From contig NZ_SODD01000026.1 in the NCBI RefSeq assembly GCF_004365815.1, forward strand, positions 1,044 to 33,043: DNA of 32,000 nt, written 5' to 3'. Made by a program: the position numbers and the translations under genes. How positions within the stretch are numbered: position 1 is the first letter of the stretch; each line of letters opens with the position of its first letter. The stretch is from Breznakia blatticola. GTDB taxonomy: Bacteria; Bacillota_I; Bacilli_A; Erysipelotrichales; Erysipelotrichaceae. A model generated the notes under the pieces. It did no database searches, was not told the origin of the DNA, and saw nothing but the letters and a program-made list of their open reading frames with translations. This document shows, in pieces, positions 3,210 to 19,413 of the stretch.

Positions 3210-3313
3210 TTAGCCATTAAAAAAGCAAGAAGGGAAAAGAAAAACAATTTAAAATAAGTTTAATGGAATCCATTAACTTGGGTTCTGTTTTAATGTAGAG
3301 GGGGGTATAAATA

Positions 3314-3685
3314 ATGGGATGGTTTAGTAAAACCTATGTGCAAGAAATGATTGATGAGTTTGAAGATTTAATTTGCGATATCAATAGCACAATTACAAAG
3401 ATGGAAAGTAATTTAAGCACCTTGAAAACAGATGTAAAATCCATTCATAGTAAATTAGGTACATATACAGAAGCTAAAGGGTCTTACACAGATATTTATT
3501 ACAAGAAAATAGGGGAAAGTAAAGAAGATTTCAATGTTGTGTATAATAAGTATCAAGATGCTATAGATGCACTAAAGGTGAAAAAGAGAAGAGCAGAATA
3601 CGTGTTAAGTCAATTCGAGGATTATCGTAGAAAAGAAGTAAATCAAGACATAGAATATAGTGCAAATGAAGTTTACATTAACTAG
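3314..3685 (+). CDS. Small alpha-helical/coiled-coil protein, Lap/YwqH(DUF5082)-like T7SS toxin partner (inferred)
   Basis: Strong SD (GAGGGGGG). 123 aa rich in E/K/L with a coiled-coil look. It is the first gene of an operon that ends in a PT-TG toxin. Size and position match the helical partner proteins encoded upstream of LXG-type toxins. Confidence 0.5.
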   Translation: MGWFSKTYVQEMIDEFEDLICDINSTITKMESNLSTLKTDVKSIHSKLGTYTEAKGSYTDIYYKKIGESKEDFNVVYNKYQDAIDALKVKKRRAEYVLSQFEDYRRKEVNQDIEYSANEVYIN

Positions 3686-3697
3686 CGGAGGAGAATT

Positions 3698-4033
3698 ATG
3701 AGTGCAGATAAATACATTTTTGATCCTGCGGTAGTAACGAGGGTCATAAAAGAACAAAGACATGTTCGCAGTGAACTACAAGAGATTTATAAGAGTGCAA
3801 TTGAACTAAGAAGTAAAATTGATAGTGGCATTAGTTGGAAGGGTAAACAAAAGGACGTTTTACTGAATATGTTAGATGCTGTGATTTTATATCATGGTGA
3901 TGTAACTGGTGGAAAAGATGGAAAAAATAATAGTCCTTACGATGCATTAATTAGTGCATTAACAAACTTAGAGAAAAGTTTGAATGTATCTGTTAATGAT
4001 ATTCCTGCTTATAAGGAGATTTCAAAAGTATGA
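3698..4033 (+). CDS. Small helical WXG100-like protein (YwqI/DUF5344- or Lap-like, inferred)
   Basis: GGAGG SD. 111 aa, helical, with a central W-x-G (ISWKGKQ). Its stop overlaps the next start (ATGA). Confidence 0.5.
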   Translation: MSADKYIFDPAVVTRVIKEQRHVRSELQEIYKSAIELRSKIDSGISWKGKQKDVLLNMLDAVILYHGDVTGGKDGKNNSPYDALISALTNLEKSLNVSVNDIPAYKEISKV

Positions 4034-4683
4034 TTGCATTAAATACAAATGAGATTCTTGCCTTAAACGGACTATTGGATAGTGAAGCGATCCATGGAAT
4101 CAAACTTCCAACAGTACCACAAGAACAAGAAGAAGCAGTAACCAAAGAAGTAATCGAGTCACTCACGGAAAAAGAGTTTTTTATTGATGGGAAGATGAGT
4201 GATAAATTGTTTGCGATTACACAATTGTTAGAAGAATACAAAACGAGTGAACGATATGTATTTATAAATCAAATGCGTATTGGATTAAAAGATGAAGATG
4301 AAGTTACTTTTTTAGAAATTAATGAAGATGAAACTATTTATCTAGGACGTATCCAAAGAGTAAATATAGTAAAACAAATTGTTGGCAATAGTGAGTTTTT
4401 GAAGAAGGAACAAAAAACACGTTACTTTGGAAATGAAGAAAAGGATTGTAGTTTTGATGAATACACAGAGTATGTAAATAGTAAAAATGATGAATGGAAA
4501 GATATGATAGTTATCCAAGTTTATCAAGAAGAACAACTACAAAACTTTTATACATATTATATGAGTGATAATGAGGGATATTGCTACAACCATTTACGTA
4601 AAACAAGTAAAGAAAAAGGGCCGAAAGATATACGACAAGACTTAATCGATATTCTTGAGGTAGTAGGTGATCGCAATGAGTGA
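4030..4683 (+). CDS. Unclassified 217-aa acidic soluble protein, candidate toxin chaperone/adaptor
   Basis: Translationally coupled on both sides. No TM segment, no signal peptide, and no motif I can name. Confidence 0.6.
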   Translation: MIALNTNEILALNGLLDSEAIHGIKLPTVPQEQEEAVTKEVIESLTEKEFFIDGKMSDKLFAITQLLEEYKTSERYVFINQMRIGLKDEDEVTFLEINEDETIYLGRIQRVNIVKQIVGNSEFLKKEQKTRYFGNEEKDCSFDEYTEYVNSKNDEWKDMIVIQVYQEEQLQNFYTYYMSDNEGYCYNHLRKTSKEKGPKDIRQDLIDILEVVGDRNE

Positions 4684-5248
4684 TGTTACAGGAGTTACAA
4701 GTACTCAAGGTGTTGAAGTTTCAATCGGCGAAGAGAGTTATGAAATTGCAATGGAGTTTAGTAATTTAGTTGCAAGACTTGCGAGTGCTCAAAATGATTT
4801 CAATAAAAGTGCAGCATTTATGAGTGCATCAGAAGGTAGTATTATTGGAAAACAACTTGCTGAATCAATAATGACAAAAATGTCTGGATTGTTTGGACCA
4901 AACAAACAAGCAATACCATCAAATAGTCCAATACGGCCTGTAGGTGATGGAGAAGTTATGTATGAAGGTAAGGCAAGTGAAGAGATAGCGAATGCTACAG
5001 CAACACTGTCTACACATATTGATAACCTTATGAATTTTTACTCAATGTGCTCAGAATATATCAACCAAGCATGGGAAGCAATGGTTGAAAAAGATAAAGA
5101 GTTAGCGGATAAAATCTCTTTTAATTATATTGTTGAGCATAAGGAAGAGTATCGAAAGATACTTGAAGATGACTATGGTATCGATGCCGATGCATTACAA
5201 AAAGTTTCCCTTGAAAAAGATAGTAATCAAGGAGGCACAACAGCATGA
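4676..5248 (+). CDS. Unclassified ~190-aa helical protein encoded immediately upstream of, and coupled to, the toxin
   Basis: ATG 4676 sits behind AGGTGA. The track lists an upstream GTG at 4667, so the start is uncertain. The stop overlaps the toxin ATG (ATGA). Its last 89 codons are duplicated verbatim at 8909-9179. Confidence 0.6.
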   Translation: MSDVTGVTSTQGVEVSIGEESYEIAMEFSNLVARLASAQNDFNKSAAFMSASEGSIIGKQLAESIMTKMSGLFGPNKQAIPSNSPIRPVGDGEVMYEGKASEEIANATATLSTHIDNLMNFYSMCSEYINQAWEAMVEKDKELADKISFNYIVEHKEEYRKILEDDYGIDADALQKVSLEKDSNQGGTTA

Positions 5249-6246
5249 CAAAAACCAAAATTGTATGTACAAGATGGGAAGACAATGAAGTAAAAAATAA
5301 TGCGATGTTGTCAAATCTTATCAGTCTTGATTTAGATGGACCAGTAAATAGAATTAATGCTGAGTTTGCAAGGTTACCACATATTGCGAAAATTAGTTAT
5401 AGTAATTTAAATGAAAAAAAGAATACTGCTATGTATGGCTTATCAACTATATCTGGGTATGTTACAAAAATCATTGATTATATTGATGAGTACATCGATG
5501 ATCCATTCTACAAAAAATTAAATGGACCAACAGGAGTTCTGGAACGTTTGGAAAAAATCCGTTTGGATGACTCAAAATATCAAGTGAAAAACACAGCAGG
5601 TATTGAAACAGAAAAAACGGTTTATATTACAGATCCATATACACATCAAACAAAAGCTGAAGTAGTTAAGGAAGTAAAAAACAAAATCAGCATTGAAGAT
5701 ATGTTGAAGACTAGTGGGGTAAAAGGAAGTAGCAGTATTCCGACATTCAAAGATTTATATAAGGAACAGTTTGACCAACAAAGTAAGGCGAATCCGGATT
5801 TGAAGTATAGTGAATATGTTGATCAACTTATTCATAGAGCAGACATTAGTCATAGTGTGGATGCAGGATGGCTAAATGTAGTAAGTGATGTACTAGATAT
5901 AGTAGGTATTGTATCTATTGTTGGAATATTTACAGGTAAAGATTTTATTACTGGAGAAATCTATACGAAAGCGGAACGCGATGCAGCCTTAATTAATGGT
6001 ATAATAAGTATAGGAAGTTTAGCTTTTGCTGGAGTTGGGCTCGTAGGAAGTGGACTAAAAGCAACGGCAGTTGGATTAGGAAAGGCAGTAGCATTGGATA
6101 TGGCAGCTGGTGCAGCTGGTATGGGGGCAGGAGCAGTAGCTGGAGCACTAGGTGCACCAGATGAACTTCGTGCCTTGATTACAATTGGAACAGCAATGGG
6201 TGCTGGGTATGGACTTGGAAAGATAACCAATAAAAATATAAATAAA
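4978..6246 (+). repeat. Copy 1 of a 1269-bp direct repeat (3' part of the 190-aa gene plus the first ~334 codons of the toxin)
   Basis: Hand alignment with 8909-10177 (offset 3931). 4978-5966 is identical. There are 12 substitutions between 5967 and 6228, all synonymous. Similarity ends at 6246. Confidence 0.9.
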
Positions 6247-6762
6247 GCTAGTAAGGGTTCGGGTGCTAATTTAGATAATATTAATGGATTTGCTAAAGGA
6301 AATAAGAATTTCGATGATGTAGTAGATGATTATGCAAGGATTTACGCAGATAAAGTTAAAAGTAATAAGAGTTGGGAATGGATGGATATTGAAGGTGCTG
6401 AAAACCTTACGCCAAAACAAATGAAAGAAATTCGAGAATTAGCAAAAACTAATGGTTATATACCAAATATTCAGTTGAAGCCAGGAACTAACTACCCTGA
6501 TTTTGAAAGTTCTGATGTTATTTATAAAGTTAATGGAAATCCTGTTATAGAACAATTACCAGAAGATTTATGGCTAAAAGGAGATAAAGCACAATTTGAT
6601 TATCTAGACTCACAGTTGCCCGGTGGGGTTAGACCAAAAGGGTATACTTGGCACCATAGCGAAATATCCGGCAGAATGGAGTTAGTTGAATATGGTATTC
6701 ATAACTCTACATGGCATAAAGGCGGTAGAGCACCTGGCGGTTGGGCCGATGCAAAAAGATAG
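5245..6762 (+). CDS. Polymorphic toxin: unclassified ~200-aa N-terminal domain, PT-TG/Gly-Ala-rich segment, C-terminal WHH-type HNH/EndoVII nuclease
   Basis: AGGAGG SD. IVGIFTGKDFITGEIYTKAERD followed by a long G/A-rich hydrophobic stretch fits PT-TG. The C-terminus GYTWHHSEISGRMELVEYGIHNSTWHKGGR fits the WHH family signature. A SUKH immunity gene follows. Confidence 0.8.
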   Translation: MTKTKIVCTRWEDNEVKNNAMLSNLISLDLDGPVNRINAEFARLPHIAKISYSNLNEKKNTAMYGLSTISGYVTKIIDYIDEYIDDPFYKKLNGPTGVLERLEKIRLDDSKYQVKNTAGIETEKTVYITDPYTHQTKAEVVKEVKNKISIEDMLKTSGVKGSSSIPTFKDLYKEQFDQQSKANPDLKYSEYVDQLIHRADISHSVDAGWLNVVSDVLDIVGIVSIVGIFTGKDFITGEIYTKAERDAALINGIISIGSLAFAGVGLVGSGLKATAVGLGKAVALDMAAGAAGMGAGAVAGALGAPDELRALITIGTAMGAGYGLGKITNKNINKASKGSGANLDNINGFAKGNKNFDDVVDDYARIYADKVKSNKSWEWMDIEGAENLTPKQMKEIRELAKTNGYIPNIQLKPGTNYPDFESSDVIYKVNGNPVIEQLPEDLWLKGDKAQFDYLDSQLPGGVRPKGYTWHHSEISGRMELVEYGIHNSTWHKGGRAPGGWADAKR

Positions 6763-6774
6763 GAGGAATTATTA

Positions 6775-7248
6775 ATGTTTGAAAGAAGTGATATGAATGT
6801 GCTTCCTTCACCTTCGAAGGAGCAAATAATAAAAACTGAAAGATTTTACAGAATAAGTTTGCCAGAAGATTATGTAGAATTTATTAAAAATTATAATGGA
6901 GCAATACCTAAGAAAAATGCATTTACAATTGATGGAAGGGAGTATTTAGTAGAAAGATTTCTTTGTATATTAGGAAACTTGAAAAATGATTATGAAGAAG
7001 GTTGGGCTGACATAGGTGTTATTATAACCCAAATATTTGATAGACTTACTGATAGTCCGGATGAGCTGGGAATGAAAATAATACCAATTGCAGCATTGTT
7101 TGCAGGAGATTTTGTTTGCTTAGATTTTAGGGTAAATAAAAAAGATCCAAACGTTTGTATTTGGTATCACGAGACATCGGATGAGTTTAAGCCAGACACT
7201 AAAAAAGTTGCTAGAAATTTCACAGATTTTTTAGAAATGCTTAAATAA
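6775..7248 (+). CDS. SMI1/KNR4 (SUKH-1) family immunity protein
   Basis: Starts 12 nt after the toxin stop, behind AGGAGG. ISLPEDYVEFIKNYNGAIP is the classic SUKH N-terminal motif. 157 aa. Confidence 0.8.
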   Translation: MFERSDMNVLPSPSKEQIIKTERFYRISLPEDYVEFIKNYNGAIPKKNAFTIDGREYLVERFLCILGNLKNDYEEGWADIGVIITQIFDRLTDSPDELGMKIIPIAALFAGDFVCLDFRVNKKDPNVCIWYHETSDEFKPDTKKVARNFTDFLEMLK

Positions 7249-7433
7249 TGAAAGTGCAGTGAATGATTTTCCTTGCCCCCAGGCGCGCCAACGGCAAAGT
7301 GCCAAAGGAGTGGTGCTGGGCGAGGATGTAATACCGCCCTGCGCTAACGTCAACAAACAATAAAATACTGGATAAACATGGGACAATAAGCGAAAAAGGG
7401 CTTACCCCATAATATTTGAAAATGATAGAAATA

Positions 7434-7507
7434 ACGCCTCATTTTGAACTCTGCGTATACATCAAAATGAGACGTTTTTTATTACCGAGGGGCTTCGCCC
7501 CTTTTTT
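7434..7507 (+). terminator. Two consecutive rho-independent terminators
   Basis: The first is ACGCCTCATTTTGA..TCAAAATGAGACGT plus TTTTTT (7434-7480). The second is AGGGGCTTCGCCCCT plus TTTTTT (7488-7507). Confidence 0.6.
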
Positions 7508-7589
7508 GGTACATCGCAGAAACTTGGGGTGAGCAGAAAAAACACAAGTAAATAAGTTGGGGTGAAAAGTACCCCAAACTTCTTAAGAG

Positions 7590-8225
7590 ACGGTGTAAAA
7601 ATTTTTGTGCAAAGTATCCTCCCTTGGTAGAATGAAAATAACTACCAAAGGAGGATTTTTAATATGAGTAAGAAAGATATCATTAAAATGATAAGAGAAG
7701 AATATGGTGTAACGAATGCTTTAAAAGATCTAATAGGTGATACTCTCCAAGATATGCTTAATTCAGAATTTGATGAGCACATGGGATATGAGAAACACGA
7801 CCAGTCTGAACTCAAAGACAATTATCGTAATGGTAGTTCTAAGAAAAATGTAAAAACTACACAAGGTGAAATAGAACTAAATATACCAAGAGACAGAAAT
7901 GCAACTTTTGATCCAATGGTTATAGAAAAGCATAATCGAGATATATCTGACATTGATCATAAAATCATAAATTTATATGCTAGAGGTATGTCAACACGTG
8001 ATATTAGCGATTCTATAAAAGACATCTATGGAGTTGATGTTAGTGCTACTATGATTAGTAAAATTACGGATAAGATTATGCCGAAAGCTTTAGAATGGCA
8101 AAATAGAGCGTGTACACGGTTTATCCAATCGTATTTATTGATTGCGTACATTTTAATGTGAAGAATGAAAATATGGTAAGCAAGAAGGCTGCTTATGTAG
8201 TTTTAGGCGTTACAGAAACTAGATT
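7590..8225 (+). mobile_element. IS256-family insertion sequence remnant (left end plus frameshifted, 3'-truncated transposase pseudogene 7664-8225)
   Basis: ORF 7664..8161 has the IS256/mutator-type N-terminus (DEHMGYEKH..NYRNGSSKK..IPRDRN..FDP..INLYARGMSTRDI..EWQNR). After a frameshift near 8107-8112 it continues as VYTVYPIVFIDCVHFNVKNENMVSKKAAYVVLGV and then stops about 185 aa in; intact members are roughly 400 aa. A GTGTAAAA-type terminal motif lies near 7600. Confidence 0.75.
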
Positions 8226-8228
8226 ATG

Positions 8229-8467
8229 AGGTGGTTGGGTCATGAATGCAGATGATATTAACGGTTTAACCCCTACTCAAATTTAGATGAAATATGCATT
8301 AACATATGAGCCTATATTGGAGAAAAGCTATATTACTGGCAGGCATAAAAATCAATATGGGTGAAGCAAATAGTCTTTTTGGTTATCTTGGTGGAGCTAT
8401 TCAAATTGATTTTATTAGTTGGAGAATTTAAAGAAATCGGAAAAAATACAAATTGGAGTGATAAATA
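8229..8467 (+). pseudogene. Decayed orphan toxin tip, same family as the C-terminus of the toxin at 9176-10669
   Basis: Reads GGWVMNADDINGLTPTQI*MKYALTYEP.., compared with GGFVMKAEDIKNLTPAEIQAKYALPYEP in the intact toxin. After frameshifts it reads GEANSLFGYLGGAIQID and GEFKEIGK..W, compared with GEVAPNFGYSGGGIQID and GEFKELGKIIDWR. It has one in-frame stop and at least two frameshifts, and it abuts the IS256 remnant. Confidence 0.75.
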
Positions 8468-8824
8468 ATGATAAAAGTAAATAAAAATGTAATAGAAGTA
8501 AACAAAAAGAAAAAAGAATTTGAATATAATATTAGAAAATATATACAGCGAAATGATAAAATTTTTATATTACTAGAGATACCTATGGGAATAAATCTAA
8601 CAAGAAAAGAAATTGACAATATTATTTGTGTTAATTTGGATTTAGATATTATATGGATAGTGAAAAATATACCATTAAAACAGTTTCCTAATATGGATAA
8701 TCTTCCTTTTGAAGCAATAAGAATAACTGAAAATAATGAACTAAGGGGAGTAGACTTCTATGGTAGAAATTATTGTATTAATCAAAATAGCGGAGAATTA
8801 ATAAGTTTTAAAGTTGTTAAATAG
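8468..8824 (+). CDS. Orphan immunity protein, paralog of 10673-11035
   Basis: Intact 118-aa ORF placed directly after the decayed tip, with the same stop/start geometry as the intact pair. It shares DKIFILL(E/D)IP.GI.LT.KE..NI.C, G.DF.GR and FK..K with the 120-aa protein. Confidence 0.7.
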   Translation: MIKVNKNVIEVNKKKKEFEYNIRKYIQRNDKIFILLEIPMGINLTRKEIDNIICVNLDLDIIWIVKNIPLKQFPNMDNLPFEAIRITENNELRGVDFYGRNYCINQNSGELISFKVVK

Positions 8825-8908
8825 TACATTTAATATTGATAGTAATAACAAAAGATTTATAGTGCATAATAAAGAAGAATATTGCTGCAACCAGTTACAT
8901 AAAATAAA

Positions 8909-9179
8909 TGAAGAGATAGCGAATGCTACAGCAACACTGTCTACACATATTGATAACCTTATGAATTTTTACTCAATGTGCTCAGAATATATCAACCAAG
9001 CATGGGAAGCAATGGTTGAAAAAGATAAAGAGTTAGCGGATAAAATCTCTTTTAATTATATTGTTGAGCATAAGGAAGAGTATCGAAAGATACTTGAAGA
9101 TGACTATGGTATCGATGCCGATGCATTACAAAAAGTTTCCCTTGAAAAAGATAGTAATCAAGGAGGCACAACAGCATGA
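8909..9179 (+). pseudogene. 5'-truncated second copy of the 190-aa gene (last 89 codons only)
   Basis: Identical to 4978-5248. The track ORF 8814..9179 is a chimera: its first ~32 codons are unrelated read-through sequence. Confidence 0.85.
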
Positions 9180-10177
9180 CAAAAACCAAAATTGTATGTA
9201 CAAGATGGGAAGACAATGAAGTAAAAAATAATGCGATGTTGTCAAATCTTATCAGTCTTGATTTAGATGGACCAGTAAATAGAATTAATGCTGAGTTTGC
9301 AAGGTTACCACATATTGCGAAAATTAGTTATAGTAATTTAAATGAAAAAAAGAATACTGCTATGTATGGCTTATCAACTATATCTGGGTATGTTACAAAA
9401 ATCATTGATTATATTGATGAGTACATCGATGATCCATTCTACAAAAAATTAAATGGACCAACAGGAGTTCTGGAACGTTTGGAAAAAATCCGTTTGGATG
9501 ACTCAAAATATCAAGTGAAAAACACAGCAGGTATTGAAACAGAAAAAACGGTTTATATTACAGATCCATATACACATCAAACAAAAGCTGAAGTAGTTAA
9601 GGAAGTAAAAAACAAAATCAGCATTGAAGATATGTTGAAGACTAGTGGGGTAAAAGGAAGTAGCAGTATTCCGACATTCAAAGATTTATATAAGGAACAG
9701 TTTGACCAACAAAGTAAGGCGAATCCGGATTTGAAGTATAGTGAATATGTTGATCAACTTATTCATAGAGCAGACATTAGTCATAGTGTGGATGCAGGAT
9801 GGCTAAATGTAGTAAGTGATGTACTAGATATAGTAGGTATTGTATCTATTGTTGGAATATTTACAGGTAAAGATTTTATTACTGGAGAAATCTATACAAA
9901 AGCAGAACGCGATGCAGCCTTAATTAATGGTATAATAAGTATAGGAAGTTTAGCTTTTGCTGGAGTTGGGCTTGTAGGAAGTGGACTAAAAGCAACGGCA
10001 GTTGGATTAGGAAAGGCAGTAGCATTAGATATGGCAGCTGGTGCAGCCGGTATGGGAGCAGGAGCAGTAGCCGGAGCATTAGGTGCACCGGATGAACTTC
10101 GAGCCCTGATTACAATTGGAACAGCAATGGGTGCTGGGTATGGACTTGGAAAGATAACTAATAAAAATATAAATAAG
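8909..10177 (+). repeat. Copy 2 of the 1269-bp direct repeat
   Basis: See copy 1 (4978-6246). Confidence 0.9.
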
Positions 10178-10669
10178 GTAGTTAAGGACTCGGGTACAGT
10201 CGGTTCGGGTAGTGTTTATGATGATTTAGATGAGATGTTAACAGGATCACTTGATGGTAAAGTTAAGTACAATAAAATAGAATTATCTGATAATGTAAAT
10301 GATTTCTGGAAAAACAAGGGATACAGTGAGCCACCATATAATGCTGGTGATGTTGTAATTGATGGTACCCTTACCAAAGATGGAACATTTGTTCGTGTTT
10401 ATGATGGTGTAAACACAAAATTGGAAGGTGGATTTGTAATGAAGGCAGAAGATATAAAAAATCTTACTCCTGCTGAAATCCAAGCAAAATATGCATTACC
10501 ATATGAGCCTGTTTATGTTGCAGAGGTGAAATTAGATGCAGGAACCAATATTCATATAGGTGAGGTAGCACCTAATTTTGGATACTCCGGTGGTGGTATT
10601 CAAATTGATATGAAAGGTGCATGGGTAGGTGAATTTAAAGAACTCGGAAAAATAATAGATTGGAGATAA
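9176..10669 (+). CDS. Polymorphic toxin, second allele: same N-terminal 334 aa as 5245-6762, with a different C-terminal tip resembling TNT-type NAD+ glycohydrolases
   Basis: Protein identical to the first toxin through ..GKITNKNINK, then unrelated. The tip FVRVYDG..GGFVMK..LTPAEIQAKYALPYEPVYVAEVKLDAGTNIHIGEVAPNFGYSGGGIQID fits the R..G.f ... aLP ... y.v ... G.vaP.fG..GGG.Q pattern I associate with the TNT (tuberculosis necrotizing toxin) domain. Confidence 0.75.
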   Translation: MTKTKIVCTRWEDNEVKNNAMLSNLISLDLDGPVNRINAEFARLPHIAKISYSNLNEKKNTAMYGLSTISGYVTKIIDYIDEYIDDPFYKKLNGPTGVLERLEKIRLDDSKYQVKNTAGIETEKTVYITDPYTHQTKAEVVKEVKNKISIEDMLKTSGVKGSSSIPTFKDLYKEQFDQQSKANPDLKYSEYVDQLIHRADISHSVDAGWLNVVSDVLDIVGIVSIVGIFTGKDFITGEIYTKAERDAALINGIISIGSLAFAGVGLVGSGLKATAVGLGKAVALDMAAGAAGMGAGAVAGALGAPDELRALITIGTAMGAGYGLGKITNKNINKVVKDSGTVGSGSVYDDLDEMLTGSLDGKVKYNKIELSDNVNDFWKNKGYSEPPYNAGDVVIDGTLTKDGTFVRVYDGVNTKLEGGFVMKAEDIKNLTPAEIQAKYALPYEPVYVAEVKLDAGTNIHIGEVAPNFGYSGGGIQIDMKGAWVGEFKELGKIIDWR

Positions 10670-10672
10670 TAA

Positions 10673-11035
10673 ATGAATTCAAAATATAATGTTGAAGAAA
10701 ATAAAATCATTATAAATAACATTGAAATTTATATGGACTATCCAATTAAGGATATTAAAGAATTAAGAGATAAAATATTTATTTTATTAGATATCCCTAG
10801 AGGGATTAAACTTACAGAAAAAGAAGATTGTAATATCCTTTGTTATAATTCCTCAGGTATATTTCAATGGCGTATAAGTTCTTCTTTACCCAAAGGCATT
10901 GAGAGCAAAGAATTAATACCCTATATTTCTATAGATATACAAGAAGGAAACTTATATGGTTTTGATTTCTGGGGGCGCAAATTCCATATAGATACTTTTA
11001 ATGGAAATTTACTTGACTTTAAAACTTTCAAATAG
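10673..11035 (+). CDS. Putative cognate immunity protein of the TNT-like tip
   Basis: Starts 3 nt after the toxin stop. 120 aa. Paralog of 8468-8824. Confidence 0.65.
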   Translation: MNSKYNVEENKIIINNIEIYMDYPIKDIKELRDKIFILLDIPRGIKLTEKEDCNILCYNSSGIFQWRISSSLPKGIESKELIPYISIDIQEGNLYGFDFWGRKFHIDTFNGNLLDFKTFK

Positions 11036-11294
11036 AAATAATATATGACTTTGAAATCGGAAATCAAAGGGGCATTGTCGATTTATGTGGCTAATATTTA
11101 GCTTTTGATCAAACAAAAGACAATACCAAATGAAAAAAATCACTGTGAAATTTTTAGTATGAATAAGCAAAAAGGTGCTTTGAGAACTAGCGGGGTTTTA
11201 GACAAAAGTTATAAAGTATAGAGGGGTCAATCTTTACCCCTCTATTAGTTTAAAACCATCAGTTCAATCAATAGACTTCAGTCAAGACTGAGGA

Positions 11295-12110
11295 CTATTT
11301 TTTCGTTCCTTTCTTTTTCTTATTTGTCCTGTATTCACTTAAGGAATAGCACTCATACTTATTTTGCGAGTACATGATTTTATTGCGAGCTCTCTCAAAG
11401 TTTCTAAAACCATTTGCATTATTCAAAATTTTCTTAATATAATTATTTAACCTTCAATTACACCGTTCGAGAACCGTCGTCCATCAAACCATACAAATGA
11501 GTTTAGTATTTCTTCTTTCCATTTTTCCAGAGTATTTGCACATCTATTAAATTCATTTATCTGAGAGTTCCGCATTGCTTCAACTATGTCATCAAGTCTT
11601 TCATTATGAAGTTCCGCTTTTGTGAACTTGGTTTCTTGAAAAAGTAGTCGTACAGGATTACGTATCTTCTAGATTTTACGATATCAAGAATCAGTTTCTT
11701 ATCGAAATCCATAATCATAAATGCATATTTATATTTCGAATGTCGATTGAAATAAAACTCATTGATACAGATGTGTTGTGTGAGTGCTTTTGGTTGTACT
11801 TGCACATGAATATCAAACAACTCCACTACTTTAGTAACAGATAGGTTGTATCTTCTTGCCACTGAGGAAAAAGTTTCGTTATATGGTTTTAAATCATCTA
11901 AAATGTTTATAATGGACTTAGAAGATACTTTAGTGCGTCTATTCGATGTAAACGGATTGTTTTCAACGAATGAAATCTGGCAGGATTTACACAAGTATCT
12001 TTTACATTTGTAGAATAGGAAAGTGTCACGGTTGATAAGACTATTATGTGATACTTTTCTTATTAGCGAAGCTAGAATACCACTTACTATGCGAGTGGTA
12101 ATAGGCTTCT
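11295..12110 (-). mobile_element. ISL3-family transposase pseudogene (N-terminally truncated, internally deleted, frameshifted)
   Basis: The minus strand reads ..FLFYKCKRYLCKSCQISFVENNPF..RRT.., ..INEFYFNR..KYAFMIMDFD..KLILDIV (ORF 11584..11994). It then reads ..EFNRCANTLEKWKEEILNSFVWFDGRRFSNGVIEG, a frameshift, and LNNYIKKILNNANGFRNFERARNKIMYS ending at 11295. About 0.8 kb remains. Confidence 0.75.
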
Positions 12111-12203
12111 AGTTGTAAACACGCACCAAAAAAGCACCAAATTTCGATATACTATAGATGGCCTGGCAGCTAACTATAAATAAAGAAAGAAGGTGCATTG
12201 TCT

Positions 12204-12365
12204 AATGAAAGACACAAACAATTTATCACACACAAGTTACAGATGCAAATATCACATTATAATAATACCAAAGTATAGAAGAATGGTAATTTATAATAAG
12301 TTAAGGAGAGATGTCGGACAAATATTGAGAAGACTAATAGAAAGAAAATCTATATATTTTATATA
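12204..12365 (+). pseudogene. IS200/IS605-family TnpA (Y1 transposase) N-terminal fragment
   Basis: MKDTNNLSHTSYRCKYHIIIIPKYRRMVIYNKLRRDVGQILRRL matches the conserved TnpA N-terminus (H..w.c.YHiv..pKYRr). It stops after 53 codons. Confidence 0.65.
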
Positions 12366-12468
12366 GGCAGAAATTTTAAGTTAAGTTATAGATTAGTACA
12401 TATGAACTATAATTAGTTACAAATACTAGATGTATTATTCGGGTAATGTATAAATCAAAGGAGATTGA

Positions 12469-12981
12469 ATGAAGAAGGCAATTGTTTTTTTAGCAACACT
12501 CATTTTTATAACTGGGTGTATAAGAGTATATAGTTCCCATGACAAATTAAGAGATTATCTAAAGGACTATTGTGACGATTTAGAATGTGAAAATGAGGGG
12601 ATTGTAGCTGAAATGGAAATTACTGATGTAGGAAGTTATGCAATTGCAAAAATAAGTTATGATGGAAACGAAGAACTTATTTTCGCTTGCCGTCACTCAC
12701 CTGGAGGTCAATCTCCAACAGGTTCTGGAGAACTTGGACCTGTATTTCTAGAGGATTCATACTATTTATTTGATAATCTGGATAGTTGGTTTGGACATGG
12801 TTATAACTATTATGTATATATGGGTTATGGGCTACTAGAATCAGTGGAATATAATGGTGTAAAATTAGATAAAGAAGTATTTGAATTTTATTTGAATGGA
12901 GATAAAAAAATAATAACTAGCTTCGTTCTTAAATTGGATTCAACAGAACTATTTGACAAATTAAATCTAGTTTTGAAATGA
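12469..12981 (+). CDS. Lipoprotein of unknown function (cassette 1)
   Basis: AGGAG SD. Signal peptide with lipobox MKKAIVFLATLIFITGC. Distant similarity in layout to 14655-15215. Confidence 0.7.
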   Translation: MKKAIVFLATLIFITGCIRVYSSHDKLRDYLKDYCDDLECENEGIVAEMEITDVGSYAIAKISYDGNEELIFACRHSPGGQSPTGSGELGPVFLEDSYYLFDNLDSWFGHGYNYYVYMGYGLLESVEYNGVKLDKEVFEFYLNGDKKIITSFVLKLDSTELFDKLNLVLK

Positions 12982-13105
12982 TTAAATAGGGTTTTATGTA
13001 TGTCGTTGCGCGTAAGGAAGGGACAAGGCAATAAAATGTAAGTTATAGTAGTAGTGTGTGTAGAGTTATTTGATAGTGGTTTATAAAAATTAGTAAGAGG
13101 GGAAA

Positions 13106-14278
13106 ATGAAAAATATAGGAGAAGTATTGTTTAGACATGTTACTGCAACGTGTGTAACATTTATTATTGCATATGTATTTACTACATATTATGAGAATAA
13201 TATAGGTGTAAGTAAGTTTGAATGGTTTGGTTATTTAGCCCTTTTTAGTGGTATCATTGCAACTGCAACTTACATAGGTCAATACATTGATAAAGCTAAA
13301 GGAAAAGCGTTAGTACTATTTATAGTAGGATGTATTATATTGGTGAAATTTGGTGTCTTTTTTGTATTAGTACCAATGTTACTTATTGAAAGTATAGTAT
13401 TTATTTATTCGATTTTTAAATTGAATATGAATACTGTTTTGAATAGTGATGAACAAAGGCAAATTGAACAAGGCAAAATTGATAAAATGAAGATTGTAAT
13501 ACTTCAGAATAGAAGATTATGTGCATACAAAATTTTGATTGCGTTGATTGATACAGGAATTATATTTAGTCTTTCAAGAATTTTTAATAGTGTTGCTATA
13601 GTTGCCTTAGTCTTATTGTTTTTGTCTTATTATTTGTATATAGGTAAGATTCAAGGCAAAAACATTCAAAAAACTGCTAAGTTATTAGATGATGTTTTGA
13701 CAGTAGAATGCGACGCGAAATTATATTGTGTTATGTATCGTGCGATAGAAAGAAATTGTAGTTCGATTGCTATCATGTATAACTATATGTGTGGACTTCA
13801 ATGGGGTGGGTATGTAATAGAACTTGATAGAATGTTAAAAGCGTACCGAACATACAGCAAAACGTTTCAATATAAAACCATGTTTTATTCAAGAAAGGCG
13901 TTTGATAATAAAGTAAGTGAAAGTTTGTACACAGAGTTAATTGCACTTTATGATCGCGTTATTAAGCGTAGTAAAAATGATAAAATGTGGATATATGGTA
14001 GAAAAATACTGGTGATACAACGAAAAATCATTAAGCAAAGTTATAGAGAAGCACTAGAGAACATTCATGAATTATATGAATATGAAGAGATTTTACCAAA
14101 GATTTCATTAATTAATCAGAGAAGTTTGGAAAGTGAGTGTTTATATCATTTAGGTAAATATGAGGAATGCACGAACTTACTTGAATGGATTATTGAACAT
14201 GGTAATACATTGGTGGTGGTACGTAATGCGCAAGATCGTAAACAAAGGATTCATGAAAACCTAGCTATTGAAGTATAA
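13106..14278 (+). CDS. Multi-pass membrane protein (~6 TM) with a ~210-aa Cys-rich, TPR-like C-terminal domain, unknown function (cassette 1)
   Basis: GAGGGG SD. Hydrophobic segments at about aa 12-29, 40-61, 68-82, 84-104, 139-160 and 163-180. The C-terminal domain has conserved ECDA.LYCVMYR.IERNCSSIA.MY.YMCGLQ and a TPR-like ECLYHLG.YE.C..LLEWIIE.GNTL. Paralog at 15385-16587. Confidence 0.7.
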   Translation: MKNIGEVLFRHVTATCVTFIIAYVFTTYYENNIGVSKFEWFGYLALFSGIIATATYIGQYIDKAKGKALVLFIVGCIILVKFGVFFVLVPMLLIESIVFIYSIFKLNMNTVLNSDEQRQIEQGKIDKMKIVILQNRRLCAYKILIALIDTGIIFSLSRIFNSVAIVALVLLFLSYYLYIGKIQGKNIQKTAKLLDDVLTVECDAKLYCVMYRAIERNCSSIAIMYNYMCGLQWGGYVIELDRMLKAYRTYSKTFQYKTMFYSRKAFDNKVSESLYTELIALYDRVIKRSKNDKMWIYGRKILVIQRKIIKQSYREALENIHELYEYEEILPKISLINQRSLESECLYHLGKYEECTNLLEWIIEHGNTLVVVRNAQDRKQRIHENLAIEV

Positions 14279-14654
14279 AATAGCTAGATAAAGTGATGTT
14301 TACAACATCCTGGTTACATCAATTGACATAATGTCTATCCAATACGAAGTTCACAGCAACTAAAGCAGTAATATTTATAAAATTACAGTTAAAGAAGAAC
14401 GTTTATGAAAGTACTGGTGATTATGTATGTTTATAGAAAAGGAAAATAGTATTGTTATTAAAATACTCTGATTAAAAATAGATAAACAATTACCTAGACA
14501 AATGTAAAAGATTCTTATAAAAATGTATGGTATGATTATTTCGTTGGAATTGCGTTTTAAATAGTGAGTAAACAGAGAATGTTAAGAAAATCTTATGTTC
14601 GGTATTACTTGCTATAACTTAATTAAAAGTGTTGTGATTAGATAAGGAGATTTT

Positions 14655-15215
14655 ATGAATCAAATTGGTAAGAAAGCTAGTATATTCTTATTGCTAATAC
14701 TGGTTTTGTTTGGCTGCCGGAGCGATTTACCATCTTTCGAAGAGAGTTTAGATGAATTTGTAGAAGGAAGCGAAACACTGGTTCGTGTAGAAGAAATTTT
14801 GGATTATAAGGAGTTTGAAGATGCATTGATTGGAATTGCATTAATAAGTAATGAAAATGAGGATGAAATTCTTTACTTAAGCGGATTGATTGTTGATGAA
14901 GATACAGGATTAACTGTAGAATCACACGGTGAAACTAAACCTATCTATATACATAATGAATCAGAAATTATGGTTTACCCTTCAAAAGATAAACAATATG
15001 AAAGCGATCCAAAAAGTAATTACACGGAGTTTAAGTCCTCAAAAGTAAAATATTATACTGGAATCGTAGAAGGAAATCAAAAACTTAAATATAATGACAA
15101 AAAAATATACACCAAGAAGGTGGATTTAGAATATAAGGGCAAGCCAGAAACTATAACCTTTTGGATAGTTAAGATATCCAGTGACGAAAGTTTTAATATT
15201 GATAAATTGACCTAG
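14655..15215 (+). CDS. Lipoprotein of unknown function (cassette 2)
   Basis: AGGAG SD. Lipobox LLILVLFGC. Highly diverged counterpart of 12469-12981. Confidence 0.7.
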   Translation: MNQIGKKASIFLLLILVLFGCRSDLPSFEESLDEFVEGSETLVRVEEILDYKEFEDALIGIALISNENEDEILYLSGLIVDEDTGLTVESHGETKPIYIHNESEIMVYPSKDKQYESDPKSNYTEFKSSKVKYYTGIVEGNQKLKYNDKKIYTKKVDLEYKGKPETITFWIVKISSDESFNIDKLT

Positions 15216-15384
15216 TAAGGTAACAGAGATGTAGTAGTTTAAAAACTATGTCTTTTGTATATTAGATTTGTTAGCGAGTGACATTGTGCGTAAATAAAAG
15301 ACAAAGCAATAACAATGTAAGTTCTAGTAGTAGTGTGTGTAGAGTTTTTAGATAGTGGTTTATAGAAATTAGTAAGAGGGGAAA

Positions 15385-16587
15385 ATGAAAAATATAGGAG
15401 AAGTATTGCTTAAACATGTTGCTGTAACGTGTCTAACATTTATTATAGTATATGGATTTACTACAAATAATGCTAATCTATTTGAATGGTTTTGTAATTT
15501 CGCACTTCTTGGTAGTGTTGCTGCAACGGTAACTAACGTTGGTCGACACATTATCAAATCAAAAGGAAATGCACTAATACTATTTGTATTAGGTTGTCTT
15601 GTAGTGTTTATAGCTGGGTGTATTGTATTGGCAAAATTTGGTGCCCATTTTGTGTTAATACCAATGTTACTTATCGAAAGTATATTATTTGCTAATTCGA
15701 TTTTAAATTTAAATATGAATTCCATTTTAACTAAAGATGAACAAAAGCAAATTGATCAAGATAAAATTGGAAAAATGAAGACTATAATACTTCAAAACAG
15801 AAGATTATACTTATACGAAATATTGATTGTATTGGTAGATACTGTAATTATATATGGTCTATCAAAAATTATTGAGATTAAAATGATTGTTTTCATAGTG
15901 TCAATAGTATTGATTATCTGGTCTTATTATTTGTATATAAGTAAGATTCAATTAAAAAGTTCATTCAAACCCAGCGAGTTATTAGAGAATGTTTTGTCAG
16001 AAGAATGCGATGCATATTTATATTGTGTTATGTATCGAGTAATTGAAAGAAATTGTAGTTCGATTGCTGTTATGTATTGCTATATGTGTGGACTTCAATG
16101 TGGTGATTATGTAATAGAATTTGATAGAATGTTGAAAGAATACTATATGTATAGAGGAATGTTCCAATATAAAGTAATGTATTATTCAAGAAATGCATAT
16201 GATAATAATGTAAATGATAGTTTATACAAAGAACAAATTGAATATTGCGATCGCATCATTAAACGCCTTAAGAATGATAAAGAAATGATATACAGTAAAA
16301 AAATACTCATGATAGAACGAAAATTTATTATACAGAATTATACAGAAGCACTAGAAGATCTTTATGAATTACATGATGAATTTTGCGAGTATGAAAAGAC
16401 AAAATCAAAGCTTTCGATAATTAGTCTGAAAAGTTTAGAAAGTGAATGCTTATATCATTTAGGTCAATATGAGAAATGTATGGACTTACTTGAATGGATT
16501 ATTGAAAATGGAAATACATTAGCGATAGTACGCAAAGCACAAATATGCAAATATAAGATTCAAGAAAAACTAGCTATTGAAGTATAA
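15385..16587 (+). CDS. Multi-pass membrane protein with Cys-rich/TPR-like C-terminal domain (cassette 2), paralog of 13106-14278
   Basis: Same SD and first 8 codons as the paralog, the same TM layout, the same conserved Cys pattern, and the same C-terminal ..LAIEV. Confidence 0.7.
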   Translation: MKNIGEVLLKHVAVTCLTFIIVYGFTTNNANLFEWFCNFALLGSVAATVTNVGRHIIKSKGNALILFVLGCLVVFIAGCIVLAKFGAHFVLIPMLLIESILFANSILNLNMNSILTKDEQKQIDQDKIGKMKTIILQNRRLYLYEILIVLVDTVIIYGLSKIIEIKMIVFIVSIVLIIWSYYLYISKIQLKSSFKPSELLENVLSEECDAYLYCVMYRVIERNCSSIAVMYCYMCGLQCGDYVIEFDRMLKEYYMYRGMFQYKVMYYSRNAYDNNVNDSLYKEQIEYCDRIIKRLKNDKEMIYSKKILMIERKFIIQNYTEALEDLYELHDEFCEYEKTKSKLSIISLKSLESECLYHLGQYEKCMDLLEWIIENGNTLAIVRKAQICKYKIQEKLAIEV

Positions 16588-16631
16588 AATGGATAGATAA
16601 AGTGATATTTACAACATCCTGGTTACATCAA

Positions 16632-16660
16632 TTGACATAATGTCTATCCAATACTAAGAT
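16632..16660 (+). promoter_or_regulatory. Candidate promoter of the DsbA-family gene (TTGACA - 17 nt - TAAGAT)
   Basis: Consensus -35, a 17-nt spacer and an acceptable -10, about 75 nt upstream of ATG 16737. A degenerate copy lies at 14323-14351. Confidence 0.4.
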
Positions 16661-16729
16661 AACACCAACCAAAGCGGTAAAAGTTATAAACAAAGAGTTT
16701 ATAGGTTTATAAATTTATAGCTAAAGGAG

Positions 16730-16750
16730 GGCGTTTATGAAAGTAACTAT
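16730..16750 (+). repeat. Right copy of the 21-nt exact direct repeat (SD-to-codon-5 of the DsbA-family gene)
   Basis: Identical to 2736-2756. Confidence 0.85.
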
Positions 16751-17441
16751 TGATATGTACAGTGACTATGCATGTCCATTTTGTTATCTGGGAAAAGAGA
16801 ATTTAAAAGCAGCAATTAAAACGTTACATCTACAAGATGATGTTGATATTCGTTACCATAGTTTTCAGTTAGATCCAAATATTGATCAATCACACCCAAT
16901 TGATTTAGAACACTTTGCGAAGATGAAAGGAATTTCATTGCAGCAATTACTTGAATCACAAAAAGAATTAGGTGAAAGACTACAAGAAAAAGGATTGACG
17001 ATGCATTATGACAAATTGATTGTCGCAAACAGTTTTGATGCACATCGTTTAGTAAAGTATGCAACAACACAAAACAAGGCTACAGAGTTACAAGATCGTT
17101 TATTAAAAGCAAGTCTTGAACAAGGATTAGATATTGCAGATTATAATGTGTTAACTACACTAGCTGTAGAAGTAGGTTTGGATAAAGATGCAGTAAAAGC
17201 TGTACTAAATTCTGGTGATTATGCATATTCAGTCATTCAAGATTTGGATAGTGCACGTGAACAAAATATATCGGGTGTTCCATTTTTTGTGATCAACAAT
17301 CGTTATCCAATTTATGGTGCACAACCAGAATATCGTTTTGAAGATACACTACGTCGTGCATTACTTGAAATGGATGATGCACCAATAAAAAAAGAAAAGA
17401 AACCAGAAGTCTGTGAAGGCGATTGTTGTTTGTTTGAATAG
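16737..17441 (+). CDS. DsbA/FrnE-family thiol:disulfide oxidoreductase
   Basis: N-terminal YSDYACPFCY (CPFC active site) in a DsbA-like thioredoxin-fold layout. Cys-rich C-terminal tail CEGDCC, as in FrnE-like proteins. Confidence 0.8.
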   Translation: MKVTIDMYSDYACPFCYLGKENLKAAIKTLHLQDDVDIRYHSFQLDPNIDQSHPIDLEHFAKMKGISLQQLLESQKELGERLQEKGLTMHYDKLIVANSFDAHRLVKYATTQNKATELQDRLLKASLEQGLDIADYNVLTTLAVEVGLDKDAVKAVLNSGDYAYSVIQDLDSAREQNISGVPFFVINNRYPIYGAQPEYRFEDTLRRALLEMDDAPIKKEKKPEVCEGDCCLFE

Positions 17442-17467
17442 GTGATGTTACGGCATCACTTTTCTTT
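17442..17467 (+). terminator. Short hairpin plus T-run after the DsbA-family gene
   Basis: GTGATG-TTACGG-CATCAC followed by TTTTCTTTT. Confidence 0.4.
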
Positions 17468-17541
17468 TGAAAAAGTTGTATTCCAATAGAATTTAGACAC
17501 ACATATTGATATACTAAACCTAGAACTAGGAGGATGATAGG

Positions 17542-18492
17542 ATGGCAATTCAAGAAGGAAAAGTCGTAATTATCGGAGCAGGTATGGTTGGTAGTCAAAC
17601 CCTTTCTGCAGTATTAAGAGAAGCAGTTGTAAATGAAATCGTTCTTATTGATATGAATAAAGAAAAAGCCCAAGGAGAAGTGCTTGATGCATCGCATACA
17701 ACAGCGTTTGCATATAGCAGTAATGTGAACATTCATACAGGTGATTATAGTGAATGTAAAGATGCACATATTATTGTGATGTCAGCTGGTCCAAGTATTA
17801 CTAAAGGAAATACGATGGATCGTAGTTTACTGTTAAATAAGAATATTGCAGTAATGCATGATGTAATGACGAACATCACAAAATATACAAAAGAAGCCAT
17901 TATCATTGTGATCAGTAATCCACTTGATGCATTAGTTTATTATGGGCAACATGCATTTGATTATCCACGTCATAAAATGATTGGGACAGGTACGTTATTA
18001 GATACAGCACGTCTACGTAAGATTATAGGTGAAACCTGTGGTGTAGATAGCAAGAATGTACATGGATATGTTCTAGGAGAACACGGAGAAAGTGCATTTG
18101 TTACTTGGAGTGATGTGAATATTGCAGGTATCCCATTTGAAGATTTAAATACAACCTTCCAAACAAAACTCGTAAAAGAAGAAATCTATAATGAAATGCG
18201 TTCCGTTGGATTTGATATATTACAATTAAAAGGATATACAAATGTTGGAGTTTCAGCTGCATGCGCAAGAATTATTAAATGTATTGTATTAAATGAGAAA
18301 AGCGTATTACCGATTTCCAATGTGCCTGATGGAGAATATGGATTACATGATGTTGCCTTAAGTTTGCCTTGTATTGTAGGTAGTCAAGGAATTGAACGGA
18401 TTCTAGAAATTCCATTAACAATTGCAGAACGTGCTTGTCTAGAGCGTTCAACAGCAAAACTAAAAGAAGAAAACTCAAAAATCGAAGCATAA
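17542..18492 (+). CDS. ldh: L-lactate dehydrogenase (L-2-hydroxyacid dehydrogenase family)
   Basis: Rossmann motif VVIIGAGMVGS, plus IGTGTLLDTARLR and LGEHGES catalytic motifs. 316 aa. Confidence 0.85.
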   Translation: MAIQEGKVVIIGAGMVGSQTLSAVLREAVVNEIVLIDMNKEKAQGEVLDASHTTAFAYSSNVNIHTGDYSECKDAHIIVMSAGPSITKGNTMDRSLLLNKNIAVMHDVMTNITKYTKEAIIIVISNPLDALVYYGQHAFDYPRHKMIGTGTLLDTARLRKIIGETCGVDSKNVHGYVLGEHGESAFVTWSDVNIAGIPFEDLNTTFQTKLVKEEIYNEMRSVGFDILQLKGYTNVGVSAACARIIKCIVLNEKSVLPISNVPDGEYGLHDVALSLPCIVGSQGIERILEIPLTIAERACLERSTAKLKEENSKIEA

Positions 18493-18496
18493 GTTG

Positions 18497-18527
18497 GCAT
18501 GTTCCTTAATAAGGAATGTGCTTTTTT
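18497..18527 (+). terminator. ldh terminator
   Basis: GCATGTTCC-TTAATAA-GGAATGTGC followed by TTTTTT. Duplicated at about 19327-19357. Confidence 0.6.
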
Positions 18528-18550
18528 CTTTATACGTATATATCAAAAAA

Positions 18551-18559
18551 TGATATGAT
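18551..18559 (+). promoter_or_regulatory. Extended -10 element TGaTATGAT upstream of DUF975 copy 1
   Basis: TGnTATGAT lies 37 nt upstream of ATG 18596. The same element recurs before the other two paralogs. Confidence 0.35.
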
Positions 18560-18595
18560 ATCAAAAGGGTGTGTGATGTAAAATGGGAGGACTCT

Positions 18596-19216: not shown

Positions 19217-19258
19217 TGGTTCTTTACTGCCTTTGTAGCATATGCTTTACGTGCTTGT

Positions 19259-19388: not shown

Positions 19389-19413
19389 TGTGTGATGTAA
19401 AATGGGGGACTCT

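Follow-up and report, generated by a model that had tools for sequence, protein, structure and literature searches.

Here, we present an analysis of a polymorphic-toxin locus of Breznakia blatticola, a member of the Erysipelotrichaceae isolated from the cockroach gut. The DNA examined, referred to as the window, is the whole stretch of 32 kb that was analyzed, and the evidence comes from one draft genome. The locus carries two toxin genes in tandem, which are recorded as separate NCBI proteins and lie on one 33-kb contig. Their products begin with the same N-terminal part (the trunk) and end in different C-terminal toxic parts (the tips). Genes for partner proteins lie upstream of toxin 1, a predicted or presumed immunity gene follows each toxin, and the segment between the two holds the remnant of an insertion sequence (IS), a decayed tip and an orphan immunity gene (Table 1).

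Results

A direct repeat 1269 nt long with 99% identity underlies the two toxin genes. A repeat search independent of the six reading frames gave a spacing of 3931, and the base-by-base comparison at this offset agreed in extent, spacing and content with an earlier reading made from the letters alone (the sequence-only reading). On its left side, the repeat is bounded by a first mismatch at position 4977, and the junctions at 4977/4978 and 8908/8909 are abrupt and non-homologous. The duplicated stretch includes 267 nt of the partner gene, the AGGAGG ribosome-binding site and the ATGA in which the partner stop codon overlaps the toxin start codon, and the two copies flank a unique segment of 2.66 kb. 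As the sequence-only reading had found, the 989 nt from 4978 to 5966 have zero mismatches. The copies differ at 5967, 5973, 6042, 6096, 6117, 6126, 6141, 6148, 6159, 6171, 6175, 6228 and 6246, by 12 transitions and one transversion. None of the 13 differences is non-synonymous, and residues 1 to 334 of toxin 1 and toxin 2 are identical. The first 12 positions had been listed exactly, and correctly described as synonymous, in the sequence-only reading; it had missed the 13th, at 6246, where AAA and AAG both encode Lys. Its placement of the end of homology at 6246/10177 captures the trunk/tip boundary; however, 6246 itself differs, and beyond it, where the copies diverge, a semi-conserved linker runs on for ~20 nt. 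The repeat ends at the same place where family-wide conservation ends and where a related metagenomic allele (L002, described below) switches to another tip.

Table 1. Features of the toxin locus, with positions counted from the first base of the window
Feature	Position	Strand	Basis or remark
123-aa helical partner, first gene of the effector module	3314..3685	+	Weak YwqH-like Pfam match, E = 0.006
111-aa small partner	3698..4033	+	No family match; position holds a 106-aa gene in related loci
DUF5081 protein, EsaE-type chaperone position	4030..4683	+	Pfam DUF5081, E = 2.3e-8
190-aa partner directly 5' of toxin 1	4676..5248	+	Open reading frame (ORF); stop overlaps toxin ATG (ATGA)
Direct repeat, copy 1	4978..6246	+	Last 89 codons of the partner gene, ribosome-binding site, ATG, toxin codons 1-334
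Toxin 1, 334-aa trunk and WHH (HNH/EndoVII) nuclease tip	5245..6762	+	Pfam
Predicted SUKH-family immunity gene of toxin 1	6775..7248	+	Pfam SUKH_6 7.8e-24, SMI1_KNR4 2e-19
Intrinsic-terminator-like hairpin	7487..7509	+	GAGGGGC-TTC-GCCCCTT, then T-run; consensus scan
IS256-family transposase remnant, N-terminal 165 aa only	7664..8161	+	Pfam Transposase_mut 2.8e-40
Decayed orphan tip-2-like fragment (pseudogene)	8190..8460	+	72-83% nt identity to 10415-10665
Intact orphan immunity gene, 118 aa	8468..8824	+	40% aa identity to 10673-11035, E = 3e-20
Candidate promoter-like motif TTGATA-16-TATAGT	8836..8863	+	10/12 consensus positions; 45 nt 5' of copy 2
Direct repeat, copy 2	8909..10177	+	Repeat search and base-by-base comparison
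Truncated 3' remnant of the partner gene, 89 codons	8909..9179	+	Alignment; without first conserved block
Toxin 2, trunk identical to toxin 1 and 163-aa tip	9176..10669	+	Base comparison; NADase-like (Tne2/Tse6/TNT) fold
120-aa presumed immunity gene of toxin 2	10673..11035	+	Position, 3 nt after toxin stop
Terminator-like site after the second toxin-immunity pair	11276..11303	+	Consensus scan

The change in identity within the repeat is sharp, as had been claimed from the letters, and highly non-random. The contrast of 0/989 with 13/280 differences gives p = 2.4e-9 in Fisher's test. The variable part has ~74 synonymous sites, of which a proportion pS = 0.175 differ, corresponding to a synonymous divergence dS of 0.20 (Jukes-Cantor) with a non-synonymous divergence dN of 0; at this pS, the lack of any change at the ~196 synonymous sites of the identical part has P = 4e-17, and the 95% upper bound on pS in that part is 1.5%. 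Under neutrality, 13 synonymous changes out of 13 would be expected with P ~3e-8, and the arm has changed in the manner typical of purifying selection. In a maximum chi-square scan, the optimum for one break fell after 6095 (chi-square 53, permutation p = 2e-4), since the density of differences climbs towards the tip, from 0/989 through 3/129 to 10/151, the last two not being significantly different (p = 0.15). The pattern is thus a sharp step at ~5967, possibly followed by a gradient, and we conclude that the step is a recombination junction near 5967. A purely mutational or constraint cause of the step was considered and is ruled out by the same P = 4e-17. Sequencing errors as the source of the 13 differences are likewise ruled out by their all-synonymous nature and their 12:1 ratio of transitions to transversions.

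The trunk consists of a helical N-terminus and a Gly/Ala-rich hydrophobic region of the PT-TG type. An exhaustive HMMER search with the 334-aa trunk returned 155 cluster representatives, with alignments that usually end at residues 318-333. Among 34 of these relatives examined, at least 12 toxin-type Pfam tip families are represented, with TNT, Endonuclease_NS_2, EndoU, deaminase, GH-E, AHH, WHH, CdiA_C and RES tips as well as others. Such a trunk with varied tips is the mark of a polymorphic toxin family. PT-TG matches 24 of the 34 relatives, and toxin 1 itself scores 17.5 bits against a cut-off of 23.5; the PT-TG assignment in the sequence-only reading is therefore clear at the level of the family but sub-threshold in the protein of the window. 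The WHH, SUKH and IS256-remnant identities given there all exceed the Pfam gathering score. For toxin 1, these scores are 1.6e-14 for WHH (53.8 bits, cut-off 25.1) and 4.9e-8 for Colicin-DNase. The immunity gene, which starts 13 nt after toxin 1, scores 84.9 bits for SUKH_6 (cut-off 27). The pairing of WHH toxin and SUKH protein is also present in the closest full-length relative (L001; 45% identity). A WHH tip 69% identical to that of toxin 1 is found on a Pfam-LXG scaffold in Enterococcus plantarum and, therefore, tips move between trunks. A sequence search of the PDB gave low-complexity noise only, and no module protein had an NCBIfam match.

Toxin 2 is encoded by a complete gene of 497 codons, the AGGAGG ribosome-binding site and ATG of which are identical to those of copy 1. 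Its tip reaches 16 bits with Pfam TNT compared with a cut-off of 27 (E = 0.016), in an alignment to the C-terminal GGG-x-Q region. The tip has three database homologues only, and an AlphaFold (AF2) model built from them has a pLDDT of 70.5. The best fold match of this model in the PDB is Tne2 (6b12; probability 0.99, E = 0.054, TM 0.59 on target); other matches are Tse6, the Aspergillus fumigatus NADase and an Rhs1-CT toxin. Of the five leading matches, four carry the name of an NADase or of Tse6, at E-values of 0.05-0.3. R73 and Q142 (GGG-x-Q motif) are invariant in four tip-2 homologues. It is reasonable to regard tip 2 as a putative TNT-like NADase on the basis of this model and of the Pfam alignment; the TNT-like tip of the sequence-only reading thereby has weak to moderate support, from a sub-threshold Pfam TNT match and from the NADase fold matches. 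The 120-aa presumed immunity protein had no family match in Pfam or NCBIfam.

Between the repeat copies, the first toxin-immunity pair is followed by a hairpin (7487-7503) that is a predicted terminator; the fold of 7440-7520 has z = -2.65. Each of the two toxin-immunity pairs has its own terminator-like site after it, and the consensus scan found none between the orphan immunity gene (8468-8824) and toxin 2. The IS256 remnant scores 138.8 bits with Transposase_mut (cut-off 21), covers profile positions 15-159 of 379 and has distant DNA matches to annotated IS256 transposases. In the orphan tip, we found an in-frame TAG and frameshifting indels of -2 and -8, while the adjoining orphan immunity ORF is intact, an outcome with P ~0.02 if both had decayed at an equal rate. 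The retention of this immunity gene beside a decayed tip implies transcription through 8468-8824. A further 84 nt of unrelated sequence separate the orphan immunity gene from copy 2 of the repeat. The sequences that follow the two related immunity genes were aligned in search of an insertion junction and showed no homology. As minor observations on this segment, the last ~41 nt of the orphan tip (8418-8467) are 83% conserved compared with 72% elsewhere and hold the GGAG ribosome-binding site of the orphan immunity gene, which from sequence appears consistent with selection for orphan immunity translation. The stretch 7255-7345, just 3' of the SUKH gene, is GC-rich within an AT-rich region and forms a long imperfect hairpin (z = -2.2) with no notable ORF; a scan of the GC-rich 7200-7700 against Rfam gave no match.

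Because gene order is conserved in relatives, we assign the locus to the predicted type VIIb secretion system (T7SSb) modules for polymorphic toxins of the EsaD/LXG-like type. In L001 and in four Listeria booriae loci (L004-L007), YukC/EssB, EssC and WXG100 genes directly precede a homologous six-gene module in the order ~124 aa, ~106 aa, DUF5081, 109-152 aa, toxin, immunity. For a module of this type, secretion of the toxin would be expected to depend on EssC. The position of the 123-aa partner is held by genes for 124-133 aa in L001, L003 (from a related Logan assembly) and L004-L007, and a DUF5081 gene lies at the same position in every one of these related loci. The 190-aa partner is homologous to a 109-aa gene in L001 and a 152-aa gene in L003, with two conserved blocks. 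Because the partner fragment in copy 2 keeps only the second of these blocks, it is probably not functional alone, and toxin 2 would need the upstream partners in trans. The Listeria booriae homologue, which is 40% identical, is named "LXG domain-containing" in UniRef. Directly 3' of the toxin module, L003 carries relaxase/MobC genes (4569-6205), and L004-L007 carry relaxase/MobC genes and a gene for a large serine recombinase (12547-17987). This gene content suggests that in these relatives a mobile element may abut or carry the effector end of the locus.

We searched for further alleles and for rearranged forms of the locus. A plasmid megablast with 3300-11100 of the window found no match, and an exact look-up of the toxin 1 protein came back empty. 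No relative emerged when species-representative genomes were scanned with a protein pattern. In metagenome and genome collections, degenerate DNA patterns representing the trunk end and DAGWLNVVSDVLD had zero matches. When the trunk by itself served as query in a word-indexed protein search, just the two proteins of the window and P0005, which is encoded by L002, were returned. No rearranged variant, whether deletion or duplication, was found in any collection searched, and these searches returned nothing beyond L002. The two related loci L003 and L004 (Listeria) are uniformly ~91% identical and, as comparators for an identity gradient, are uninformative.

The comparison of trunk and repeat alleles thus covers one genome and one metagenome fragment. 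L002 is a 1.4-kb ENA metagenome contig (ERZ1030060) with an orphan-type module that starts at trunk residue ~170; conservation breaks off at the same ...GKITNKNINK boundary, beyond which a different WHH-type tip follows. Upstream of 5967, L002 differs from both window copies at 1/146 positions, and downstream at 7-8/201; the p values of the upstream/downstream contrast are 0.15 and 0.085. At 11 comparable variable sites, it has the copy-2 base at five (5967, 5973, 6117, 6126 and 6246) and the copy-1 base at six (6141, 6148, 6159, 6171, 6175 and 6228), a pattern of three runs that has P = 0.024 given the 5:6 split. This clustering suggests that further recombination breakpoints may lie inside the arm, and the sequence of L002 also suggests that the variable arm may represent tip-linked allelic variation. 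Because the trunk is near-identical across samples, we suggest that, in this lineage, the gene family as a whole shows the two-tier pattern, with trunks that are young or homogenized and arms that are old and linked to the tip; accordingly, the pattern need not trace one conversion event in this genome. As a side observation, L002 has two in-frame deletions, of 48 nt and 78 nt, relative to the trunk of the window (L002 395-860); they are bounded by the short direct repeats TTGAYCAAC and GCTGG, as for deletion by slippage or microhomology.

Discussion

On balance, and with only somewhat more confidence than an even chance would give, we favor a model in which both toxins are made and share one set of partners in trans, the junction near 5967 records past recombination, and recombination between the copies is a by-product rather than the work of a dedicated switch. 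According to this model, the 5' two-thirds of a toxin gene would have been duplicated together with 267 nt of the partner gene, giving two complete toxin genes. The shared trunk would be the part that is recognized by the partners, the chaperone and the secretion machine, and each tip would come with its own immunity gene, the WHH DNase with the SUKH protein and the Tne2/TNT-like NADase with the 120-aa protein. Near 5967, a young or homogenized trunk would join an older arm of ~280 nt that travels with each tip. Both toxins are probably produced and share the single partner-gene set in trans; such sharing, combined with recurrent homologous recombination, may keep the trunks identical. A crossover of the RecA type between the copies would delete or amplify the 3931-bp unit, and we suggest that such events would be a by-product and an evolutionary route for cassette shuffling. 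In favor of expression of copy 2, its ORF, ribosome-binding site and immunity gene are intact, and 0/13 changes are non-synonymous. Further indirect arguments are the decay of the orphan tip beside an intact orphan immunity gene, the lack of a terminator-like site between that gene and toxin 2, and the separate terminator-like site after each toxin-immunity pair. The repeat, its statistics, the domain identities and the family context are shown directly; that copy 2 is expressed, that toxin 2 draws on the partners in trans and in which order the events took place, we infer.

Several observations weigh against this model. Transcription may fail to reach copy 2 across the hairpin at 7487-7503 and the IS remnant, and the promoter-like motif at 8836-8863 lies in an AT-rich region where such sites occur at chance frequency (53 found, 55.7 expected). 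The sequences compared come from one genome and one metagenome fragment of 1.4 kb. The L002 contrasts are individually weak (p = 0.085-0.15; runs test 0.024) and, with three sequences, a star tree without recombination is also compatible with the site patterns. The perfect identity over 989 nt may be overstated if sparse differences were collapsed by a short-read assembler. As to the secretion system, Pfam and NCBIfam scans found no T7SS core gene within the 32-kb window, Pfam LXG (PF04740) matches neither the toxin nor any of the 34 relatives, and the AF2 model of the trunk has a pTM of 0.34, so that a fold search with it is meaningless and an LXG-like architecture is not classifiable.

The sequence-only reading had seen copy 2 as silent, deletion between the repeats as a one-step switch that puts the TNT-like tip in place of the WHH tip under the operon promoter, and the identity step as a recent conversion over an older duplication. 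Spelled out as a model, copy 2 would be a preassembled cassette, and a single RecA-mediated deletion would act as a stochastic switch from the WHH toxin to the NADase. It had the geometry right: a crossover anywhere in the 1.27 kb deletes 3931 bp and leaves an intact toxin 2 gene behind the partners in the operon. Moreover, the hairpin, the IS remnant and the pseudogene part copy 2 from the operon, the partner-gene fragment in copy 2 is truncated, and in Salmonella the activation of a downstream toxin by recombination of Rhs genes has been shown experimentally (PMC3967940). It was also right that the downstream copy is no bare orphan tip, since copy 2 is a complete gene with the trunk, ribosome-binding site, ATG and part of the partner gene, and this very completeness argues against silence. 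Silent DNA should gain non-synonymous changes; however, 0/13 are found (P ~3e-8), and a true orphan tip alongside has decayed. Orphans are defined by the lack of the N-terminal domain and start codon (PMC7790226). Toxin 2, with its full 334-aa trunk, ribosome-binding site and ATG, falls outside this definition, and only 8190-8460 falls within it; toxin 2 does share with orphan modules the homology for recombination, 1269 nt at 99% identity. The one-step toxin switch is likewise unsupported; the deletion would also remove the SUKH gene. Segregants lacking SUKH would be expected to face the WHH toxin of their siblings, and in the Rhs case a prior duplication is invoked against such a loss (PMC3967940). 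No deletion or duplication variant turned up in the searches described above. We therefore regard the silent-cassette model as unlikely, at about one chance in five, and a dedicated switch as possible but unsupported. Less likely again is a variant in which copy 2 is a maintained, full-length, recombination-ready cassette, recurrent conversion keeps up perfect homology over 1 kb, and 3.9-kb deletion and re-duplication form a reversible DNase/NADase switch at the level of the population; we would be surprised if it proved correct. As for an older duplication followed by recent conversion, it is only one of several histories that fit, and L002 suggests that variation in the arm is linked to the tip.

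One such history dispenses with conversion within the genome. The identical 989 nt would then be young, having arrived by a Campbell-type single crossover or a recent segmental duplication of a segment, circular or linear, from the same or a sibling strain, and the 13 differences would be pre-existing tip-linked variation of the arm. A direct repeat around a unique 2.66 kb with an abrupt, non-homologous left junction is what such an event would leave; IS256, ISL3-like and IS200-like debris lies within and beside the island, a homologous module in Listeria booriae abuts relaxase/MobC and a serine recombinase, and L002, which is near-identical upstream of 5967 and diverged downstream, makes the two-tier pattern seem to exist between genomes too. 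However, one genome cannot separate this history from conversion, the L002 contrasts (p = 0.085-0.15) are not individually significant, no integration scars or target duplications were identified, and the sequences after the two immunity genes do not align. On this evidence we judge a young integration improbable to the same degree as the silent cassette. By far the least credible explanation is that the two-copy layout or the 989-nt identity arose in assembly, by repeat resolution or bubble collapse. The source is indeed a 33-kb contig of a draft genome, and de Bruijn assemblers can collapse isolated repeat differences spaced by more than k, while densely spaced ones, such as those in 5967-6246, are not collapsed. 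Because collapse could hide sparse differences only, the change in density is real either way. In addition, the segment 6247-8908 begins and ends in repeat, so that no other linear path than the assembled one would take in all of the sequence, and the 13 differences (all synonymous, 12 transitions and one transversion) represent biological variation rather than error. Altogether, we retain the model of two expressed toxins with shared partners.

The shuffling of tips by homologous recombination is already well known, and the locus confirms known principles rather than a new one. In variable region 2 of the T7SSb locus of Listeria monocytogenes, the LXG toxins D, E, F, G and Omicron have the N-terminal region up to residue 343 in common; they occur as alleles of different strains, and the authors found at most one per locus (PMC10327511). 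The B. blatticola locus resembles this region in its conserved N-terminus (343 residues there, 334 here), abrupt divergence of the tips, dedicated immunity and nearby orphan immunity; moreover, the Omicron tip resembles the Tne2 NADase, as does predicted tip 2. In contrast, a single genome here holds both toxins in tandem, with DNA that is perfectly identical over 989 nt, the trunk has no Pfam LXG match, and the host belongs to the Erysipelotrichaceae. In Salmonella Typhimurium, the main Rhs trunk fuses to a downstream orphan tip by homologous recombination, and the authors propose that duplication comes before recombination, so that cells stay immune to the main toxin (Koskiniemi et al. 2014, PMC3967940). 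As in these and the contact-dependent inhibition (CDI) orphans, a downstream tip and immunity gene share homology with the main gene, and recombination would lose the main tip and its immunity. Those orphans lack a start codon and delivery domain, have short homology and belong to type VI or type V secretion systems, whereas here the gene is complete, the homology extends over 1.27 kb, the system is of the T7SSb type, and no rearranged variant was observed.

Closer in setting is Enterococcus faecalis OG1RF, in which orphans downstream of LXG toxins have >75% nt homology to part of the full-length toxin, and orphan tips occur as full-length toxins elsewhere (Chatterjee et al. 2021, PMC7790226). 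Both are T7SSb loci of gut bacteria of the Bacillota with toxin fragments and immunity genes; however, the OG1RF orphans are N-terminally truncated, which holds here only for 8190-8460, toxin 2 being full-length. The gene order in Staphylococcus aureus is esxC-esxB-esaE-esxD-esaD-esaG, and this module is matched here by two small helical proteins, a DUF5081 chaperone, a small partner, a nuclease toxin and its immunity protein. Recombination between tandem esaG paralogues of the S. aureus T7SS leads to gene loss and expansion (Garrett et al. 2022, PMC9484751); the recombining paralogues there are immunity genes, while here they are toxin trunks. What is new are details: the second copy is full-length and in tandem with the first, the two are perfectly identical over 1 kb, and the duplication takes in part of the upstream gene. 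The locus thereby offers a base-level example of how homologous recombination rebuilds polymorphic-toxin loci, since 8 kb bring together a perfectly homogenized trunk, an older arm that stays with each tip, a decayed orphan tip, IS debris and an orphan immunity gene that survives. It extends the one-trunk/many-tips arrangement of T7SSb, known in Listeria as alleles between strains, to the Erysipelotrichaceae, and it adds a trunk family that falls outside the LXG family of Pfam. Proof that the copies interconvert would make the locus a T7SSb counterpart of Rhs orphan activation; if the reversible switch were true, it would be the first such counterpart in T7SSb, in a gut symbiont of the Erysipelotrichaceae.

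Neighboring features of the window

A third toxin-immunity pair lies upstream at 2-2076. Its AHH-nuclease ORF is open to base 2, so that the gene probably starts outside the window; the protein has a PT-TG region, helix-hairpin-helix-like repeats and then AHH, and it is followed by a DUF4274 gene at 1624-2076. The PT-TG region of this protein shares just 28% identity with the trunk of toxins 1 and 2. More IS debris is found where the toxin island ends on its 3' side (11300-12370), with a weak match to an ISL3-type helix-turn-helix on the minus strand at 11584-11994 and a fragment of an IS200-type Y1 transposase at 12193-12366 (E = 1.7e-7).

Directly 3' of the island, 12469-16587 holds a two-gene unit in tandem, encoding a lipoprotein-like protein of 170/186 aa and a multi-pass membrane protein of 390/400 aa. 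The copies have 72-90% nt identity at a spacing of ~2.3 kb, and their proteins had no convincing family match. Further downstream, two tandem genes for DUF975 membrane proteins (18416-20037) have upstream regions that are 80-91% identical at a spacing of ~820 nt and share a hairpin and a promoter-like stretch. Finally, a full-length skipping-rope RNA motif (RF02924; 69.6 bits, E = 5e-15) lies on the plus strand at 27471-27551, upstream of an ORF at 27703.

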